Positions 3,927-11,797 of a stretch of 12,536 bases of DNA are shown here, in pieces. The notes beneath the pieces are model-generated. The model made no database searches and had not been told where the DNA came from. It worked only from the letters and a program-made list of their open reading frames with translations. The stretch's first letter is position 1, and every line of letters begins with the position of its first letter. The position numbers and the translations under genes were made by a program. The stretch is from the UHGV virus genome UHGV-1658101. One strand, 5' to 3'. This stretch comes from a virus.

Positions 3927-4700
3927 TCAGGCGGGATAAGAATGGGAGGTGGGAAAAACGATTTCTTTATAACAGCGACAATTCGGGAGCTCGCCAGCGT
4001 GACCGGTCATGCCATCAAGCGTTGGAGGTTTGCCCCATTCGACAAACTTACCTTCCATCTCCCGATGAGAATGCCGGACGTCGCCATCTTCGGCTGTTCG
4101 CCAGATATAACCATTCGAGCCGATTGACAGCGCACGCGCCTGATCCAGCGCGCCGGTTGCACGTCCAAGCTCGGTACGGGCGATAAGGTTCGCTCGTGAG
4201 CGTGACACGTCACCGGACGCAGCTATCTCTTTCGCGAATGGCTCAGCGCGGCCACCAGTCACAACAGCCTCGATGGCTTTGTTCTGAATGTCATATACCC
4301 GATCGGCGGCCTCAAGAGGCAGCGATTTGATGTACTTAATTTGCTCGATCACGATGGATTTCATCACCTGGCCTACCGGGGCGCGGTCGACCATGTTGCG
4401 CAGCTCTGCGCTGATGTTCCGGCTGTGCTGACGCCACTGCTTTTCATTCTGGCGTGCAATGTCGGCGGTAAAGTTCTCAGCAACCTTCGTCGCCCAGGGG
4501 GTGATGATTTCGCTGTAGCGCTCCAGCGCATCCATTATTTCGGTGACACTGTCATTTGAACCATCGTAGCGACCATTTACGATATCCCCGACCGCCCGCG
4601 CTATCTGCCGTAGGCTCGTTCGATATCGGATTTCCGCCTGGCGACTCTGGCGGTTTGTCGCCAAGTTCGCCGATGCCTGGCGGCGCTTCGTCTTCGGCAT
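3927..4700 (-). CDS. Head morphogenesis protein (Mu F / SPP1 gp7 family)
   Basis: 257-aa ORF directly downstream of the portal; ATG at 4700 with GAGGA 8 nt upstream; overlaps the portal 3' end by 149 nt. An alternative ATG at 4535 would remove the overlap but lacks an RBS. Confidence 0.7.
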   Translation of the reverse strand: MPKTKRRQASANLATNRQSRQAEIRYRTSLRQIARAVGDIVNGRYDGSNDSVTEIMDALERYSEIITPWATKVAENFTADIARQNEKQWRQHSRNISAELRNMVDRAPVGQVMKSIVIEQIKYIKSLPLEAADRVYDIQNKAIEAVVTGGRAEPFAKEIAASGDVSRSRANLIARTELGRATGALDQARALSIGSNGYIWRTAEDGDVRHSHREMEGKFVEWGKPPTLDGMTGHAGELPNCRCYKEIVFPTSHSYPA

Positions 4701-6018
4701 TCTCTATGTCCTCGTCGGTAATGGATGCCCCGATGCCGGTTACGTCAGAATTTTCGCGCAAATCGGTCATAGCGGCTTTCAGTGTCATCAGACCATCACC
4801 CAGCGCCGTACTGATTGCGTTGGTGGTGTTTAACGCCACCGTTGAGCGATCGACATCAGACATTTGCCAGAGCGGGTTAAACTCAAACGTGAAATCGTCC
4901 GGCAGCGGCTTGCCAAGTTCCGAACGATGCATGATGTCCAGTATCCGACGCACCGGAAGACGTAAACGTCTCTCCTGCAGCGAGCTTACCCGATCGTAAT
5001 AGTTGGCAAGGTCTGCATCACCGGTAGAAAATCCCTTCGGGGACTGTCCGAACAACCGCACCAGTGGGATACCAACAGCGCCACTAATCTGTTCTGCAAA
5101 CTGCGAAAGGATGTCATCCAGACCACTGAAGCTGTACTGATGGGTTTCAAACTTATCCCGCGAGTCCATGAGCGTCATGCCTTCATTACTCTGGAACTGT
5201 CGAATCAGGTCGATATTCTTCAGCAACGCTTCATACGCAGGACCACCAAGTGCGATAAGCTCACGTAGCTTCTCCACGCTGTAGGTACGCAAATGCGCTT
5301 TGTAGACCAGCTGCGCCGCGCCGACAGTGGCGCTGTCGAACGCAGTAAGCCGATCCCAGATACGCTCTACAACCGACATTCCCCATTCGTTTTCGGTCAT
5401 CTTCTGCTGGAATGGCAGCGTCACCCCGTCGAAGCGAATCAGGCGGCTGTGATGGATGCGCCAGGCCGGGATGCCCGTTGCAGTGGTCACCACGTCGTAA
5501 AACTCAGGTTTACCCAGGTCCGGCCCCATCTCTTTAATGCGGCGGGTCAGCACAGGGTTAATCATCCAGCGGTCGAGCGGGAGAATGCCCTTAAACTTGC
5601 CTTCTCCAATGGTTTCGAGCCGCAACGGGGTCATTGGTGCCTGCCCCTCAATCATGATGAAGCCAACCGCGCCGCCGTAGAGACGCGACCATTTCATCAC
5701 GTCGTTCAGCGCATCCCAGATCTGCAACTCATCCAGCTGCGCTTCCAGGGTGCCACGGTCTTTGGCGTCAATCTCCGAAGTGATGCGAATGCCTTTCCGG
5801 GTCATATCGTCCGGGATAGCGTCGACCGCTTCGCCGATGATCCAGGACGAACGATAGGACCATTCCACCAGCATGCGGTTGCGGCTGGTGAAGTTAGCCC
5901 GGTAGGTCGATGCTGAGTGCTGGTTAGGTGTCTGCATCCCTACGCGGGCGATAAAATTCTCATAACCATCAGCTGTGGCCTGCGCAGTTCGCCGCAGGGC
6001 TTGTTTGTTTCGTGCCAT
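4552..6018 (-). CDS. Phage portal protein
   Basis: 488-aa ORF immediately after the large terminase (TGATG start/stop overlap at 6018); size and position typical of a portal; low-complexity Gly/Pro/Glu C-terminal tail. Confidence 0.8.
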   Translation of the reverse strand: MARNKQALRRTAQATADGYENFIARVGMQTPNQHSASTYRANFTSRNRMLVEWSYRSSWIIGEAVDAIPDDMTRKGIRITSEIDAKDRGTLEAQLDELQIWDALNDVMKWSRLYGGAVGFIMIEGQAPMTPLRLETIGEGKFKGILPLDRWMINPVLTRRIKEMGPDLGKPEFYDVVTTATGIPAWRIHHSRLIRFDGVTLPFQQKMTENEWGMSVVERIWDRLTAFDSATVGAAQLVYKAHLRTYSVEKLRELIALGGPAYEALLKNIDLIRQFQSNEGMTLMDSRDKFETHQYSFSGLDDILSQFAEQISGAVGIPLVRLFGQSPKGFSTGDADLANYYDRVSSLQERRLRLPVRRILDIMHRSELGKPLPDDFTFEFNPLWQMSDVDRSTVALNTTNAISTALGDGLMTLKAAMTDLRENSDVTGIGASITDEDIENAEDEAPPGIGELGDKPPESPGGNPISNEPTADSAGGRGYRKWSLRWFK

Positions 6019-7640
6019 CAGGCCTGTCTCCCTAGCAACTCCCAGATGTTCAGGGCTGAATTCATTGGGGCATAGTTGATCATCACCGAGTCGGCAAGAT
6101 TTGGCGACCGGGTCCCATCAGGCTGTTTATCAATAACGATTTTTCCCACACCATTAATGGAATAGGTCGGCTGCGAAAGCTCGATGATGAGTTTATCTTT
6201 GAGTGCCATGCTACTGCTGATTGAGATGATTTCGTCCGGGTTGTAAGCCATACCTTCAACCACGGCGCGCCAGGTATTCTGAAAAAGTTTACGTAACCGC
6301 CACCAGCTTTGTGCTTTGGCGTTAGCGAAGAAGTCCTTGTTCAGACGTGCGGCTTGCCCGTTGTCCCCGCGAACAGCTTCATCATCCGGATCAAATACCG
6401 CGCCACTACCTCGAAACGGTGTGGCGAGTATTGACGGTCGACGCGCAGCGTTACGCAGTTCGTTGATAGCGCGTGCATCGCCGCGAACGCCAGCGCCCAG
6501 CCCGTCCTCGTCAAAGCGAAACTCTTCGAGGTTATCCTGTTCGCAAAAGCCGAAAACCTTCTCGACGGACTGATAAATGTCGCTGCCCACACCGGACCAT
6601 TCCCGCACATTTTCCAGGAGGAAGCCATGACGGGTGGAAAAGGCATTTTTGTCCCTGCCTTCGTCGGCGACATCCATCGCGCCAAGTCGTTTGCCTGTTG
6701 GCTGGATACCCAGTTTGATATGCGCATCAACGGCAGCCTGTACCCATTCGGATGGAATCAGGACGCCTTCCGCTGATGCGCTGTAGTTCAGATCAAGTTC
6801 CTGTGCCACCACCACCGGATTATCGATTTTCTCGCATTCCCTGCGATACCACTCTTCATCCTTGCGAGGATCATCCCGCCAGTGGAATGTGAATACCGGT
6901 ATCTTCCCGCCATGACGCTTCTGAGCGAACGGGTTCGCCATGCCGTTAACTGAACTCAGGTCGATACGGCAACGCGTCGTTTGTGACAACGCCGCATCAA
7001 TCAGCAGAGGACGCTGAAGGAATGCAGCCTCATCAACCAGATAAAGCGTGGTACGGTCACCACGACCAATATTATCGCCAGCCTCGCCTTTGATAACGGC
7101 ACCAGTTTCAGGAAACTCAACACGCATATATGGCGCGTGCTTCTTCTCGCTCCACGAACCGCGAAACTCTACAGGCAGTGTTTCCACGAACTTGCGCGCC
7201 TTCCAGAACAATGCTTTCGGGTCACCGGTGCTGTCGACGTATTCCTCTTTACGGGAGCCGAAACCGATAACCATTTCTTTGTTGAAGAGACAAAGCGAGC
7301 AGGCCAGTCCGATCGCGGTCCAACTGAGCCCCATTTCACGGGATTTTTCGGTAATACCATTCTCCCGATTGCCCCAGCGTTCCATAATCCAGTGGATCCA
7401 CTCCTCCTGCTTAGGGAAGAGTAAAAACGGAATGGTCACCGGCAGGCCATAATCAATATTACGCGGGTCCGTTGTCATGCCCCAGTCGATGATGAACTGA
7501 GCCGGGTTGGTTCGGTAAAACTGTTTTAGTGCTGGCAATATTTCAGGGTTCTGGCGAATGCGCTGTAGGCGTTCCATCCGCCATTCAAAAACCATCTGGT
7601 AATCAGGATGTTTAAAATCGAAGGGAAATGGTAACGGCAT
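6018..7640 (-). CDS. Terminase large subunit
   Basis: 540-aa ORF; candidate P-loop [11 protein letters not shown], Walker [13 protein letters not shown]-terminal acidic nuclease-like region ([10 protein letters not shown]); follows the small subunit with a 2-nt gap. Confidence 0.9.
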
Positions 7641-7642
7641 AC

Positions 7643-8197
7643 TTAGCCCATCATTTTTTTATACGCTTCTGCAGCCTGCTCCGGCGTTAAGTTGGTAATT
7701 TCTGTTCTGACTGGGCCTCCATCAGCGCCAGTCACTTCATTTTTGACGTTGTCTTTAAACGCCTGAACAGAAACATGACGCCCAAGCAACTCAAGGTTTT
7801 TAACCTTATCAGGCCATTTGATTTTCTTCAGAAGTGCGGCGCTATCTGCTGATGCCATCTCGACGACATCCATTCCTGATAGCGTTGTACGCCACACCTT
7901 AGGCCAGTCTTTAATCGGCTTCAGTTCGCCATTGGCAAGCAGGATATCCAGCACGTCCATCTGATCGATTTCAGTCAGCCGTCGCAATACATAGGCAGCG
8001 TCTATACCTACCTCTTCATTGCGTTCAGCCTTTAGCTCAGCAATGCGATCTGCTATGTCAGGTTTTGACAGGTTCTCGCTACCAGTGGCGCGAGCAGTTT
8101 TCTCGCTGTAACCCGCCCTGATAGCTGCCTGAGTGGCGTTTAAATCTTTTAAATATTCCCGGCAGAACAGTTCCTGCTTAGGTGTGAGCTGTTTCAA
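7643..8197 (-). CDS. Terminase small subunit (P27 family), probable TTG start
   Basis: Conserved N-terminus [28 protein letters not shown]. The ORF-track start at 8248 is a TTG inside the HNH gene; an in-frame TTG at 8197 with GGGGG 6 nt upstream sits 1 nt after the HNH stop and gives MKQLTPKQ..., with no in-frame ATG nearby. Confidence 0.75.
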
Positions 8198-8198
8198 A

Positions 8199-8696
8199 TC
8201 ACACCCCCGAAACGTTGCTCCAATTTCTATGATTAACGATGTCAGCAATCATGGTAGTGGATACGCCATATCTCTTTGCTAAAGACCTAAGCCCATTACC
8301 TACACTCCCGCGCACATACTCGCGGCGAATGCAGATGACATCGCACTCTTTTAATTTCGCCATTCCGTTCTTTTCACCTGAACGGTCAGGGTATGAGTTT
8401 CTGCCTCGCCTTGACCTGTCACGATTATTGTCAGCGACAGTACCTATAATCAGATGGTCAGGATTCACGCATGATGGATTATCGCATTTATGCCTAACAA
8501 CCAGGTCCTTGATGCTATCTAGCGAAATTCCGTTAGCTTCGCAGTATGCGATTCGATGTGCGTAGTGCGGCTTTCGTGAAATGTGCTTCTGCCCATACCC
8601 TCGCTTATTTATGTAGCCGGTATAAATCACACACTCTCCGACATACACATCATCCGGATGGGAAAACAGCTCTTGTTTGTCTGTGAGCTTTGCCAT
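8199..8696 (-). CDS. HNH homing-type endonuclease, terminase-associated
   Basis: 165-aa ORF; ATG at 8696 with GGAG RBS; motif HKCDNPSCVNPDHLIIGTVADNNRDR (HNH_3-like) and N-terminal YTGYINKRGYG...HYAHRIAY; immediately upstream of TerS. Confidence 0.85.
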   Translation of the reverse strand: MAKLTDKQELFSHPDDVYVGECVIYTGYINKRGYGQKHISRKPHYAHRIAYCEANGISLDSIKDLVVRHKCDNPSCVNPDHLIIGTVADNNRDRSRRGRNSYPDRSGEKNGMAKLKECDVICIRREYVRGSVGNGLRSLAKRYGVSTTMIADIVNHRNWSNVSGV

Positions 8697-8720
8697 TGTT
8701 GGCTCCGTTTATCCGTTAAA

Positions 8721-8742
8721 AGGGATATCAGTTAAGTTATCC
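8721..8742 (-). other. Weak hairpin upstream of the HNH gene
   Basis: GGGATA-N10-TATCCC inverted repeat followed on the minus strand by TTTTAACGG; AT-rich stem, so weak as a terminator. Confidence 0.2.
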
Positions 8743-9050
8743 CGTGTAGGGTATAAGCCATTGTCGAGACCACTCATTGAATGGCCTCTGCAATAACCGA
8801 TGTCTTTCCATCAGTCCGCCACCACAAAGAATCTTTTTTGCCATAAGGCTGGAGGTTCATCTTTCAGTGGCTGCCAGTGTTATTTCCCCACTTACTGGCT
8901 TGGGTTGTTTCGCTGTACTGCCGTTAACTGGTGGCGCACAGATTTAGTTAAATCCGTTCTCGCATGATCCAGCTTTTACATACCTGGATTGTGAGGGATG
9001 TAAATCACGGTTTCATTATCAAGCCCACCAGTAGATGGGCTTTGGAATGG

Positions 9051-9569
9051 TCACTTTGGCAGTCCGGGGATCGATATTTGCGCCTGCTGCTCAATCCTTT
9101 CGATTCTTGCTATGAGTTGAGGTTTTTTGATCCTGCCCCAGCGGTTCAGCAAGCGTCCTGACATACTGGCAACATCCTTTTCCTTCATGAACTCCAGCAT
9201 TAACTCGTTGTGCTCTCTTTGGTATGAGTGAGCCACCTCCATCAGCCTGTCACGCATCCAATTAAATGCTCTGATAAACGCCTCTTTGATGGCGGCAGCT
9301 TTTTTGCCGGTAAACGACATGATGATGTACATCGCACCGTCTTTGGAAATTTCATATTCAACATACTGATTACCCTTGTGTTCATAGGTAACCCGCGAAA
9401 AGTTGCTGGTTAGAAATTCATCCGAACAGTCTAGCTTTTCGATTTTCTGAATGATGTGGTGATGCTGCTTGTCGAAGTAAGCTGCTACCTTGCGGGAGGT
9501 TGTGATCACGCGATCACCAGAAACAACCACCATGTCCCGGAAATCGAGATTAGCCAATTGATGATTCAT
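9051..9569 (-). CDS. rha: Rha-family phage regulatory protein
   Basis: Sequence from MNHQLANLDFRDMVVVSGDRVITTSRKVAAYFDKQHHHIIQKIEKL...YIIMSFTGKKAAAIKEAFIRAFNWM matches the Phage_pRha pattern; ATG at 9569 with AAGG RBS. The track's 253-aa ORF starts at a TTG at 9812 and its extra 81 residues run across an intrinsic terminator, so I treat them as non-coding. Confidence 0.8.
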   Translation of the reverse strand: MNHQLANLDFRDMVVVSGDRVITTSRKVAAYFDKQHHHIIQKIEKLDCSDEFLTSNFSRVTYEHKGNQYVEYEISKDGAMYIIMSFTGKKAAAIKEAFIRAFNWMRDRLMEVAHSYQREHNELMLEFMKEKDVASMSGRLLNRWGRIKKPQLIARIERIEQQAQISIPGLPK

Positions 9570-9611
9570 AGCGTCTTTACCTTTTAGAAAGTGAGCCTGT
9601 CTCACAGAAAA

Positions 9612-9640
9612 GCCGCCCGAGAGAGGTCGCCACCTATAAC
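9612..9640 (-). other. Lambda cosN-like motif (candidate cohesive-end site)
   Basis: Minus strand GTTATAGGTGGCGACCTCTCTCGGGCGGCTTTTC resembles lambda cos (GTTACGGGGCGGCGACCTCGCGGGTTTTCGC, quoted from memory): shared GGCGACCTC, CGGG and TTTTC, at the equivalent position downstream of Rz. Confidence 0.3.
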
Positions 9641-9705
9641 GGCATTTCTCAGGCTCGCTTACTGAAAGGCTCTCGTTAATATGCGCGTGAGATGCGCTGT
9701 GAAAT

Positions 9706-9736
9706 TCAGATATAAAAAGCCCCGCGAATGCGAGGC
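9706..9736 (-). terminator. Rho-independent terminator between the lysis cassette and rha
   Basis: Minus-strand RNA GCCUCGC-AUUC-GCGGGGC (7-bp stem with one G-U pair) followed by UUUUUAUAUCUG; 175 nt downstream of the Rz stop. Confidence 0.55.
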
Positions 9737-9911
9737 TAAATCCTGGTATTTGTAATGAACTGGCTCTTATCTCAACGCAGCCCCTTACTGCGCGCCAGAT
9801 GCTCAATATCAAGCATCAGCAATGAGATGTTTAATCTGGATTTACTCCAGAAGTGATCACCACCCTGTCTACAGAGCCAGATGTGAAGGATGATGAGTAA
9901 AATTATCGCTA

Positions 9912-10349
9912 TCATCGAAGGCATTGCGTCCTGATGTATTCCTGCAGGTAGTTAACCTGCGCGGTTATCCTGTCGATTCCACTTCGGAGACGGTAATAAT
10001 TGAGTTCAGCATCTGCTGTAAGTCTTGGGCTTTCTCCATCGCCCATGCTGCTGGCTCCGGTCGTTGACTTTGCACAGGTGGCGGCGACTTGCAGGCGCTT
10101 ACGACCAGCAGAAACATCAGCACGGAGACTTTCGATAGTCGCGTTAGCATCAGCAAGCTCCTTTGTGTATCTGGCGTCGAGTTCTGCTACATCACGTTGA
10201 CGCTTCTGCATGTCAGCGATTGTGGATGTGGCTTTATCTCGCTGCTCTTTGTAGGCGATGGCGTTATCACGGTAATGATTAACAGACCATAACAGGCAGA
10301 CGATGATGCAGATAACCAGAGCGGAGATAATCGCGGTGACTCTGCTCAT
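9912..10349 (-). CDS. Rz: Rz inner-membrane spanin (i-spanin)
   Basis: 145-aa ORF; N-terminal TM segment [16 protein letters not shown] then coiled-coil-like region; N-terminus resembles lambda Rz while the remainder diverges; start overlaps the R stop. Confidence 0.85.
9965..10150 (-). CDS. Rz1: Rz1 outer-membrane lipoprotein spanin (o-spanin), embedded in Rz in the +1 frame
   Basis: ORF wholly inside Rz; first ATG at 10150 (track start 10156 is TTG); signal peptide with lipobox VSAC then Pro-rich mature region ([13 protein letters not shown]). Confidence 0.7.
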
Positions 10350-11129: not shown

Positions 11130-11523
11130 GTCTTACCCCCAATAAGGGGATTTGCTCTATTTAATTAGGAATAAGGTCGATTACTGATAGAACAAATCCA
11201 GGCTACTGTGTTTAGTAATCAGATTTGTTCGTGACCGATATGCACGGGCAAAGCGGCATGAGGTTGTTAGCGCAGCCTCTTGCCACCCGCTTTCACGAAG
11301 GTCATGTGTAGAAGGCCGCAGCGTAACTATCACTGATGAATTCAGGATAGCCAGTGGCTACGGCTCAGTTTGGGTTGTGCTGTTGCTGGGCGGCGATGAC
11401 GCCTGTACGCATTTGGTGATCCGGTTCTGCTTCCGGCATTCGCTTAATTCAGCACAACGGAAAGAGCACTCGGTGCATTTAAGACAAGCTCCATAAGGGA
11501 GAATGCTCTTACCTGTTACACAG

Positions 11524-11586
11524 ATATAAAAAATCCCGAAACCGTTATGCAGGCTCTAACTATTGCCTGCGAACTGTTTCGGGATT
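11524..11586 (-). terminator. tR' late-operon terminator (3' end of the 194-nt 6S leader RNA)
   Basis: Minus strand AATCCCGAAAC ... GTTTCGGGATT (11-bp stem, structured loop with GCAGG/CCTGC) then TTTTATATCTG; matches lambda tR' as recalled. Confidence 0.8.
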
Positions 11587-11720
11587 GCATTTTACAGACC
11601 TCTCAGCCTGCGATGGTTGGAGTTCCAGACGATACGTCGAAGTGACCAACTAGGCGGAATCGGTAGTAAGCGCCGCCTCTTTTCATCTCACTACCACAAC
11701 GAGCGAATTAACCCATCGTT

Positions 11721-11755
11721 GGGTCAAATTTACCCAAGTTTATTCAAAAAGTCAA
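11721..11755 (-). promoter_or_regulatory. Late promoter pR' with the Q-utilisation (qut) region
   Basis: Minus strand TTGACT (-35, fwd 11750-11755), 17-bp spacer, TAAATT (-10, fwd 11727-11732), about 29 nt downstream of the Q stop; predicted start near 11720, 194 nt from the tR' U-tract. Confidence 0.75.
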
Positions 11756-11797
11756 TATCATGCCGTTAATATGTTGCCATCCGTGGCAATCATGCTG

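Follow-up and report, generated by a model that had tools for sequence, protein, structure and literature searches.

Free-standing endonucleases home with co-conversion of the sequences that flank them, and the insertion may fall within a gene (PMC2988022). Endonuclease genes have a hot spot upstream of terminase genes (PMC10448857). The T4 Mob proteins, I-HmuI of phage SPO1, and the products of HNH_3 genes in T7-like and ICP1 phages belong to the same HNH_3 family as the protein analyzed here and, like it, have a separate DNA-binding domain. A different kind of protein is exemplified by gp74 of HK97 and its counterparts in phiSLT, GVE2, and Skunavirus (HrdP), which, like our protein, are nucleases of the HNH superfamily encoded directly upstream of the terminase genes (PMC9410871, PMC12967558). 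These gp74-type proteins are conserved in HK97-like modules that package via cos, and cos cleavage requires them or is stimulated by them.

The window (by which we mean the whole 12,536-nt stretch of DNA analyzed) is the late region of a lambdoid E. coli prophage. Its genes lie on the minus strand in the order antiterminator Q, lambda-type holin, lysozyme, Rz, a Rha/ORF11CD3 gene, and the HNH gene, followed by terS, terL, a PF06381 portal gene, and the genes for a Mu F-like protein, a head protease/scaffold, and the major head protein. No sigma-70-like promoter was found between positions 7600 and 9900, and so the HNH gene and terS would most simply share the Q-dependent late transcript. A megablast search of 50,697 phage records found no phage with the HNH gene of the window; only the flanks were matched.

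Several other features of the region were noted in passing. A 63-aa ORF with a lipoprotein-like signal (…LLVVSAC…) is embedded in another frame (9965–10156, minus strand) within Rz (9912–10349) and is very likely Rz1. A terminator-like hairpin followed by a T-run (9718–9737, minus strand) falls within the 5′ extension of the 253-aa Rha/ORF11CD3 ORF (9051–9812), and the true start of this gene is probably downstream of the hairpin because relatives annotate the gene as only 519 nt. In the mechanical ORF list, the Mu F-like ORF (3927–4700) overlaps the 3′ end of the portal gene (4552–6018) by 149 nt, and its true start is probably further downstream. No tRNA genes were detected in the whole window; in related prophages (L001, L003, L004, and L017), tRNA-Thr, alone or together with tRNA-Asn, is encoded between Q and the holin gene (compare positions 11130–11797 of the window).

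The HNH_3 endonuclease ORF (8199–8696, minus strand; 165 aa) runs from an ATG at 8696–8694 to a TGA at 8201–8199 and is separated by a single T (8198) from terS (7643–8197, minus strand; 184 aa), which runs from a TTG at 8197–8195 to a TAA at 7645–7643. The terS ribosome-binding site (RBS; 8204–8208, minus strand) lies 6 nt upstream of the TTG, within the last HNH codons, and is GGGGG in the window and GGAGG in most relatives. TerS matched Pfam family PF03592 (Terminase_2; E 6.5e-41) and also PHROG 51, and this Terminase_2 gene is directly upstream of terL (6018–7640, minus strand; 540 aa; PHROG 2), which begins 2 nt past the terS stop codon. The TGA, the TTG one nucleotide further on, and the GGGGG within the HNH 3′ end all occur where a preliminary sequence-only reading of this DNA had placed them, and the Pfam matches bear out its identification of the two genes as an HNH endonuclease and a small terminase subunit.

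The position of the terS start codon required closer consideration, as the frame is open up to a TTG at 8248, from which the mechanical ORF list derives a 201-aa product. The Terminase_2 profile begins at residue 21 of the 201-aa ORF, which is the fourth residue after the TTG at 8197. We compared 13 TerS homologues that are not preceded by an HNH gene (from E. coli, Shimwellia, Pantoea, Erwinia, Symbiopectobacterium, Pluralibacter, and phage 606R2), and found that they start 2–4 residues before an LT(D/P)KQE motif, with N-termini of the form MALTDKQEMF..., MAKLTDKQELF..., or MTKKLKAKHEVF...; their lengths are 157–196 aa, several being exactly 184 aa. The sequence-only reading had chosen the TTG at 8197–8195 and had pointed to about 17 extra conserved N-terminal residues in TerS homologues as the mark of an upstream start; the homologues begin at the position of this TTG and do not carry such residues. 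PGAP calls the same TTG as the start in four related prophages (L018–L021), and the TTG is unchanged across all of the lineages compared.

If TerS instead started elsewhere, at the TTG at 8248 or at a codon within the HNH 3′ end, the two genes would overlap and there would be no stop-and-restart arrangement. Apart from the open frame, this proposal draws on the PGAP annotations of C3728, EC291, and 5CRE51, in which terS is called from an ATG located 18 nt upstream of the TTG, inside the HNH ORF. However, the corresponding codon in the window is ACG (a change that is synonymous in the HNH frame), the TTG at 8248 is not preceded by a purine-rich RBS, and both the homologue N-termini and the start of the Pfam profile agree with the invariant TTG at 8197. 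A start other than this TTG is therefore extremely unlikely, and the 8248 TTG was rejected. We also rejected a chance origin for the arrangement, as the stop, 1-nt spacer, and TTG, with GGAGG or GGGGG upstream, were present in every relative examined (from E. coli, Yersinia, Xenorhabdus, and metagenome contigs). The comparisons support the TTG at 8197–8195 as the terS start, which fixes a position that annotation pipelines call inconsistently.

We then characterized the 165-aa protein. As had been anticipated from the sequence, it matched the HNH_3 profile (PF13392; 37.8 bits against a cut-off of 24.8); its only other Pfam match was to zf-His_Me_endon (PF05551), and it did not match PF01844. 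The catalytic and zinc-binding residues H69, C71, D72, C76, H81, N90, and D93 are invariant across 78 homologues. An AlphaFold (AF2) model built from these 78 homologues (pLDDT 89) comprises a nuclease core followed by a three-helix domain, with residues 1–10 disordered (pLDDT 51), and the protein is thus predicted to consist of a His-Me finger nuclease domain and a C-terminal three-helix DNA-binding (helix-turn-helix) domain. The best structural match was I-HmuI, and the architecture is I-HmuI-like in having a separate DNA-binding domain, although no match of the model in a Foldseek search of the PDB was significant (best E 0.13). A phmmer search of PDB sequences returned chance matches only, and NCBIfam contained no match for the HNH protein, TerS, or TerL.

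In a tblastn search, 1,063 phage records matched the HNH protein, and those that are annotated are labelled HNH or homing endonuclease. These phage relatives are found at many unrelated loci (beside genes for DNA polymerase, primase, ligase, and internal virion proteins), often with several in one genome. In three of the four comparisons made between lineages, pN for the HNH gene was 0.10–0.13 and pS was 0.63–0.84, and pN for the Xenorhabdus comparison was 0.21; intact copies of the gene are thus under purifying selection and have retained protein function. By its sequence relationships, the 165-aa protein appears to be a free-standing, homing-type endonuclease of the HNH_3 family, similar to I-HmuI and the Mob proteins.

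To define the ends of the element, we compared the window with terS alleles that lack the HNH gene. A scan of genome contigs recovered mostly distant HNH_3 genes, and the HNH-less (empty-site) alleles were found through a shared MAKLTDKQ peptide. Three of these alleles (L016, L067, and L068) share the leader and the rest of terS with the window, so that there is a presence/absence polymorphism at an otherwise identical site; in E. coli 13C1065T, E. coli SCPM-O-B-8794, and Shimwellia pseudoproteus, the leader lies directly 5′ of terS. In the empty alleles terS begins ATGGCAAAGCTCACAGACAAACAAGAGCTGTTT–GCCCGTGAGTACCTG–AAAGATTTAAAC..., and alignment with L016 showed that in the window a cassette of 514 nt (8150–8663, minus strand) replaces the 15 nt GCCCGTGAGTACCTG, which correspond to terS codons 12–16. 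In an ungapped comparison with L068 (E. coli SCPM-O-B-8794), there was one mismatch in 245 nt to the left of the cassette and none in 200 nt to its right, and the breakpoints are clean (8664/8663 and 8150/8149).

In order, the insert comprises the HNH body, its TGA stop codon, a single T, and 48 nt in which terS codons 1–16 are repeated in recoded form. The first 11 codons of the HNH ORF (ATGGCAAAGCTCACAGACAAACAAGAGCTGTTT, encoding MAKLTDKQELF; 8664–8696, minus strand) are the captured 5′ end of the native terS gene: these 33 nt are the same as those that open terS in L016, L067, and L068, and the 11-codon start is absent from the Xenorhabdus homologue (P0004). A chance similarity between the N-termini of HNH and TerS was ruled out, as the empty alleles show the duplication directly. 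The replacement terS 5′ end (8150–8197, minus strand) is a recoded copy of the native MAKLTDKQELFAREYL, to which it is identical at 22 of the first 33 nt and at 7 of the next 15 nt, after which the match is perfect for 200 nt. Because the cassette is in frame with terS codons 1–11, the endonuclease is read from the native terS RBS and ATG; it is an 11-residue fusion, within the late operon, that has taken over the native terS start. The 3′ end of the cassette brings an RBS, the stop codon, the TTG, and recoded codons 2–16, and full-length TerS is therefore still encoded. The captured 33 nt probably constitute a left homology arm. Comparison of empty and carrier alleles defined no site that could serve as a discriminating target motif; an Arg codon that is CGY in empty alleles and purine-ended in carriers offers only a hint.

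The leader 5′ of the native terS start (8697–8817, minus strand), with a GGAG RBS at 8706–8703, now drives the HNH ORF and matches the leaders of L016 and L068 without difference up to the ATG. The same leader precedes hkbM (DUF2560) in P22-like phages. Positions 8691–9100 are 95–98% identical to HK620, Sf6, and HK106, and this homology ends immediately after ATGGCA, which marks a mosaic joint at the start codon that is common to two unrelated genes (hkbM and the HNH/terS start).

The closest relatives of the HNH gene (P0001–P0004; 69–81% identity) are from Yersinia enterocolitica, Xenorhabdus miraniensis, and metagenomes. Each lies 1 nt upstream of a TTG-started Terminase_2 terS gene, and their upstream flanks are unrelated. 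The accompanying TerL proteins are of the Terminase_3 or Terminase_6C families or are unclassified, and the portals are of the PF06381 or DUF4055 families; the copy of the cassette in E. coli KCJ3K291 (99.4% identity) lies ahead of a gene for a Terminase_6N/6C TerL. The cassette is thus found with three or four TerL families and two portal families. Across five lineages, the junction and terS codons 1–34 are nearly the same, and the sequences diverge beyond that point. A second, different HNH_3 gene is present in Yersinia prophages L007 and L009 (2664–3191) and in metagenome contig L014 (147–662), in one case with a NUMOD4 domain; it is located ~1–4 kb upstream of the terS-linked gene, in the interval between lysis and terminase genes.

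Among 5,426 complete E. coli genomes, 14 contain the full-length HNH gene and 346 contain the module formed by terL and the terS 3′ part, so that at most 14 of the 346 carry the HNH gene and at least 96% of the genomes with the module are without it. Derivatives of the gene were also found. In E. coli CUPF09 (L020, 3001–3499), the 499-nt HNH gene has been annotated as a pair of overlapping ORFs, which reflects either a frameshifted, decaying copy or a sequencing error. Seven genomes keep just the last 58–61 nt of the gene; in E. coli 5CRE51 and EJN001 (L017 and L018; 2500–2561), this remnant is joined straight to the end of Rz, and a 17-codon ORF with an ATG start still runs to the TGA that lies one base ahead of the terS TTG. 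In a metagenome contig (L076, 2501–3175; P0039), what remains of the HNH gene is its last 165 nt (55 codons), which encode the helix-turn-helix domain only and continue the frame of a KilA-N/ORF11CD3 gene to which they are fused; the junction of stop codon, 1-nt spacer, and TTG is retained. All of the frameshifted or deleted derivatives retain the HNH 3′ end. A "partial" HNH protein of 113 aa (P0005) was discounted as a truncation, as it is cut by the ends of its contig. This pattern of invasion of a fixed site, maintenance, decay, and loss is typical of a homing endonuclease gene and accords with what has been published on free-standing endonucleases and on the hot spot upstream of terminases (PMC2988022, PMC10448857).

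The sequence-only reading had likened the gene to HNH endonucleases beside terminase genes that are needed for cos cleavage in HK97-like phages. In that explanation, the HNH protein would act with terminase to cut concatemers at cos, and would for that reason be co-expressed with TerS. It fits the position of the gene, whose stop codon is 1 nt before the terS start and which is translationally linked to terS, as well as the retention of this linkage across diverged lineages; terminase-adjacent HNH genes are common (PMC3592412), and gp74 is reported to stimulate cos cleavage in vitro (PMC9410871). The characteristics of gp74 used for comparison draw on papers citing Kala et al. 2014 and on a direct comparison with the gp74 sequence. 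HK97 gp74 is a 119-aa protein of a different Pfam family (PF01844), and BLASTP produced no alignment between it and the HNH protein of the window at E ≤ 100. The gp74, phiSLT, GVE2, and HrdP proteins are of ~94–119 aa and have no separate DNA-binding domain, whereas the protein of the window combines HNH_3 and helix-turn-helix domains.

The packaging module also differs from that of HK97. The 540-aa TerL had no Pfam or NCBIfam match at the thresholds used, but its nuclease domain matched those of E217 (8dkr, 2.8e-33) and Sf6 gp2 (4idh, 2e-27), and HK97 TerL did not match it at E ≤ 1. Sf6 packages DNA by a headful mechanism. Together with the portal family (PF06381), these matches make an HK97-style cos system unlikely here. 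Furthermore, the gene is missing from most genomes that carry the module (14 against 346), isogenic prophages without it exist, as do truncated and frameshifted copies, and the cassette associates with several TerL families and both portal families. We consider it very unlikely that the protein is a packaging accessory of the gp74 type, and that part of the earlier reading was set aside. The position of an HNH gene next to terminase genes is a tempting basis for annotation, but by itself it does not identify an HK97-style packaging factor.

The explanation that we consider probable is that a homing-type HNH_3 endonuclease gene invaded the 5′ end of terS in a lambdoid E. coli prophage. The enzyme would nick or cut an HNH-less terS near codons 11–16 when related phages or prophages meet, and repair from the HNH-bearing allele, in which the 33 nt at the start of terS would serve as the left arm and the conserved codons 17–33 as the right, would copy the cassette in; the recoded copy would then protect the carrier. 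TerS translation would be coupled to ribosomes terminating at the HNH stop codon, by means of a hairpin covering the stop, the start, and part of the RBS, and the endonuclease would be dispensable for packaging. From the comparison of alleles we infer that the enzyme homes, where it would cut, and that the recoded copy would be immune. The left arm of 33 nt is short for recombinational repair, and the consistent link to terS in diverged lineages is also compatible with a functional partnership of the endonuclease with TerS.

We examined the junction for features that might couple the two genes. A predicted RNA hairpin (8180–8206, minus strand; GGGUGUGA-U-UUG-AAA-CAG-C-UCACACCU) encloses the stop codon of HNH and the TTG of terS, together with the 3′ portion of the RBS. 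Local folds of this hairpin had energies of −11 to −14 kcal/mol and z scores of −2.1 to −2.9 in three of four lineages; in L011 the fold was weaker, with one pair broken without compensation, and the whole 131-nt region was not unusually stable (z −0.11). RNAalifold analysis of six junction sequences showed covariation in 1 of 42 pairs, but the stem is almost invariant and covariation is therefore uninformative. The 3′ arm of the hairpin (CTCACACC) depends on an Asp-to-Pro change that separates carrier from empty terS alleles. The sequence UGA-U-UUG, with GGGGG or GGAGG 6 nt upstream and the RBS inside the upstream ORF, is found in all lineages, and both kinds of deletion derivative (the 58–61-nt remnant and the KilA-N fusion) keep an ORF that ends at the same TGA. 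Translational coupling of HNH and terS is plausible in view of the conserved 1-nt spacer, the RBS within the HNH 3′ end, the predicted hairpin, and the retained ORF. The sequence-only reading had proposed both tight coupling and stoichiometric co-expression; we retain the first as plausible and not the second, which has no support beyond the coupling itself.

Synonymous divergence was 0.00–0.30 in terS codons 1–16 and 0.11–0.31 in the last 16 HNH codons, compared with 0.63–0.84 in the HNH body for the same three lineages (Yersinia and two metagenome contigs), in which synonymous sites of the HNH gene are at or close to saturation; the recoded terS 5′ end is near-invariant in all HNH-linked terS genes. 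The low divergence indicates nucleotide-level constraint over ~80–100 nt, and the hairpin alone does not account for a stretch of this length. Candidate sources of the constraint are a coupling element, a binding site for the endonuclease, and repeated gene conversion. The only RBS and start codon of terS now lie inside the 3′ end of the endonuclease gene, and a cis element at the constant junction could tie TerS synthesis to HNH translation. We tentatively raise the possibility, itself somewhat doubtful, that the cassette makes terS depend on the endonuclease gene in this way, with the junction acting as a coupling hairpin or as an operator bound by the endonuclease. If so, the HNH gene could be truncated from its 5′ side but never cleanly lost.

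The same conservation bears on a further explanation, in which the endonuclease originated by homing but is now kept for the benefit of the prophage, either because it cuts the terS of superinfecting relatives, and so excludes competitors, or because it binds the junction and tunes TerS synthesis. Strong purifying selection on the protein is consistent with such domestication, as is synonymous conservation of ~80 nt at the junction, beyond what an RBS and start codon need. Homing endonucleases are known to cause marker exclusion (PMC2988022), and domestication is a recognized caveat for endonuclease genes upstream of terminases (PMC10448857). However, the gene is rare (14 of 5,426 genomes) and has decayed copies, both of which argue against a strong benefit, and the data are compatible with selfish spread as well as with a benefit to the phage. 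We regard domestication as unlikely, and favor the invasion of terS by a homing cassette.

Like other free-standing HNH homing endonuclease genes, the gene in the window occurs sporadically at a fixed site in or beside an essential gene and has carried a foreign flank along with it (PMC2988022, PMC10448857). In contrast to the gp74-type genes, it belongs to a non-HK97 module and is missing from most carriers of that module. The endonuclease is likened to I-HmuI and the Mob enzymes on the strength of its sequence and predicted structure, and its cleavage activity and target site are putative. We found no description of an in-frame HNH_3 cassette in the start of terS in the text of the open-access literature. 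The kind of element is well known, and the best reading is that the in-frame cassette at the terS start is a new anatomical variant of it. It provides a natural example of how an endonuclease gene can colonize the start of an essential gene without breaking that gene, and it suggests that a cassette with short arms taken from terS and a recoded target could spread among mosaic lambdoid phages that differ in terL and portal genes. Isogenic empty-site, carrier, and decayed alleles can all be obtained from E. coli strains that have been sequenced.

The closest anatomical parallels are mobE in nrdA of Aeromonas phage Aeh1 and mobA in T4 gene 39/60, in which an HNH gene is located within an essential coding region (PMC2988022). 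In those cases the reading frames are separate, and the host protein is made as two polypeptides, which have to reassemble. Unlike free-standing HNH genes, the cassette described here is in frame inside the coding sequence of its host gene and uses the start of that gene, and it supplies a duplicated, recoded 5′ end and a TTG restart that leave the host protein whole. Thus, where mobE and mobA divide the protein that they interrupt, the 11 codons upstream of the cassette are duplicated downstream of it, and TerS is encoded as one full-length chain.
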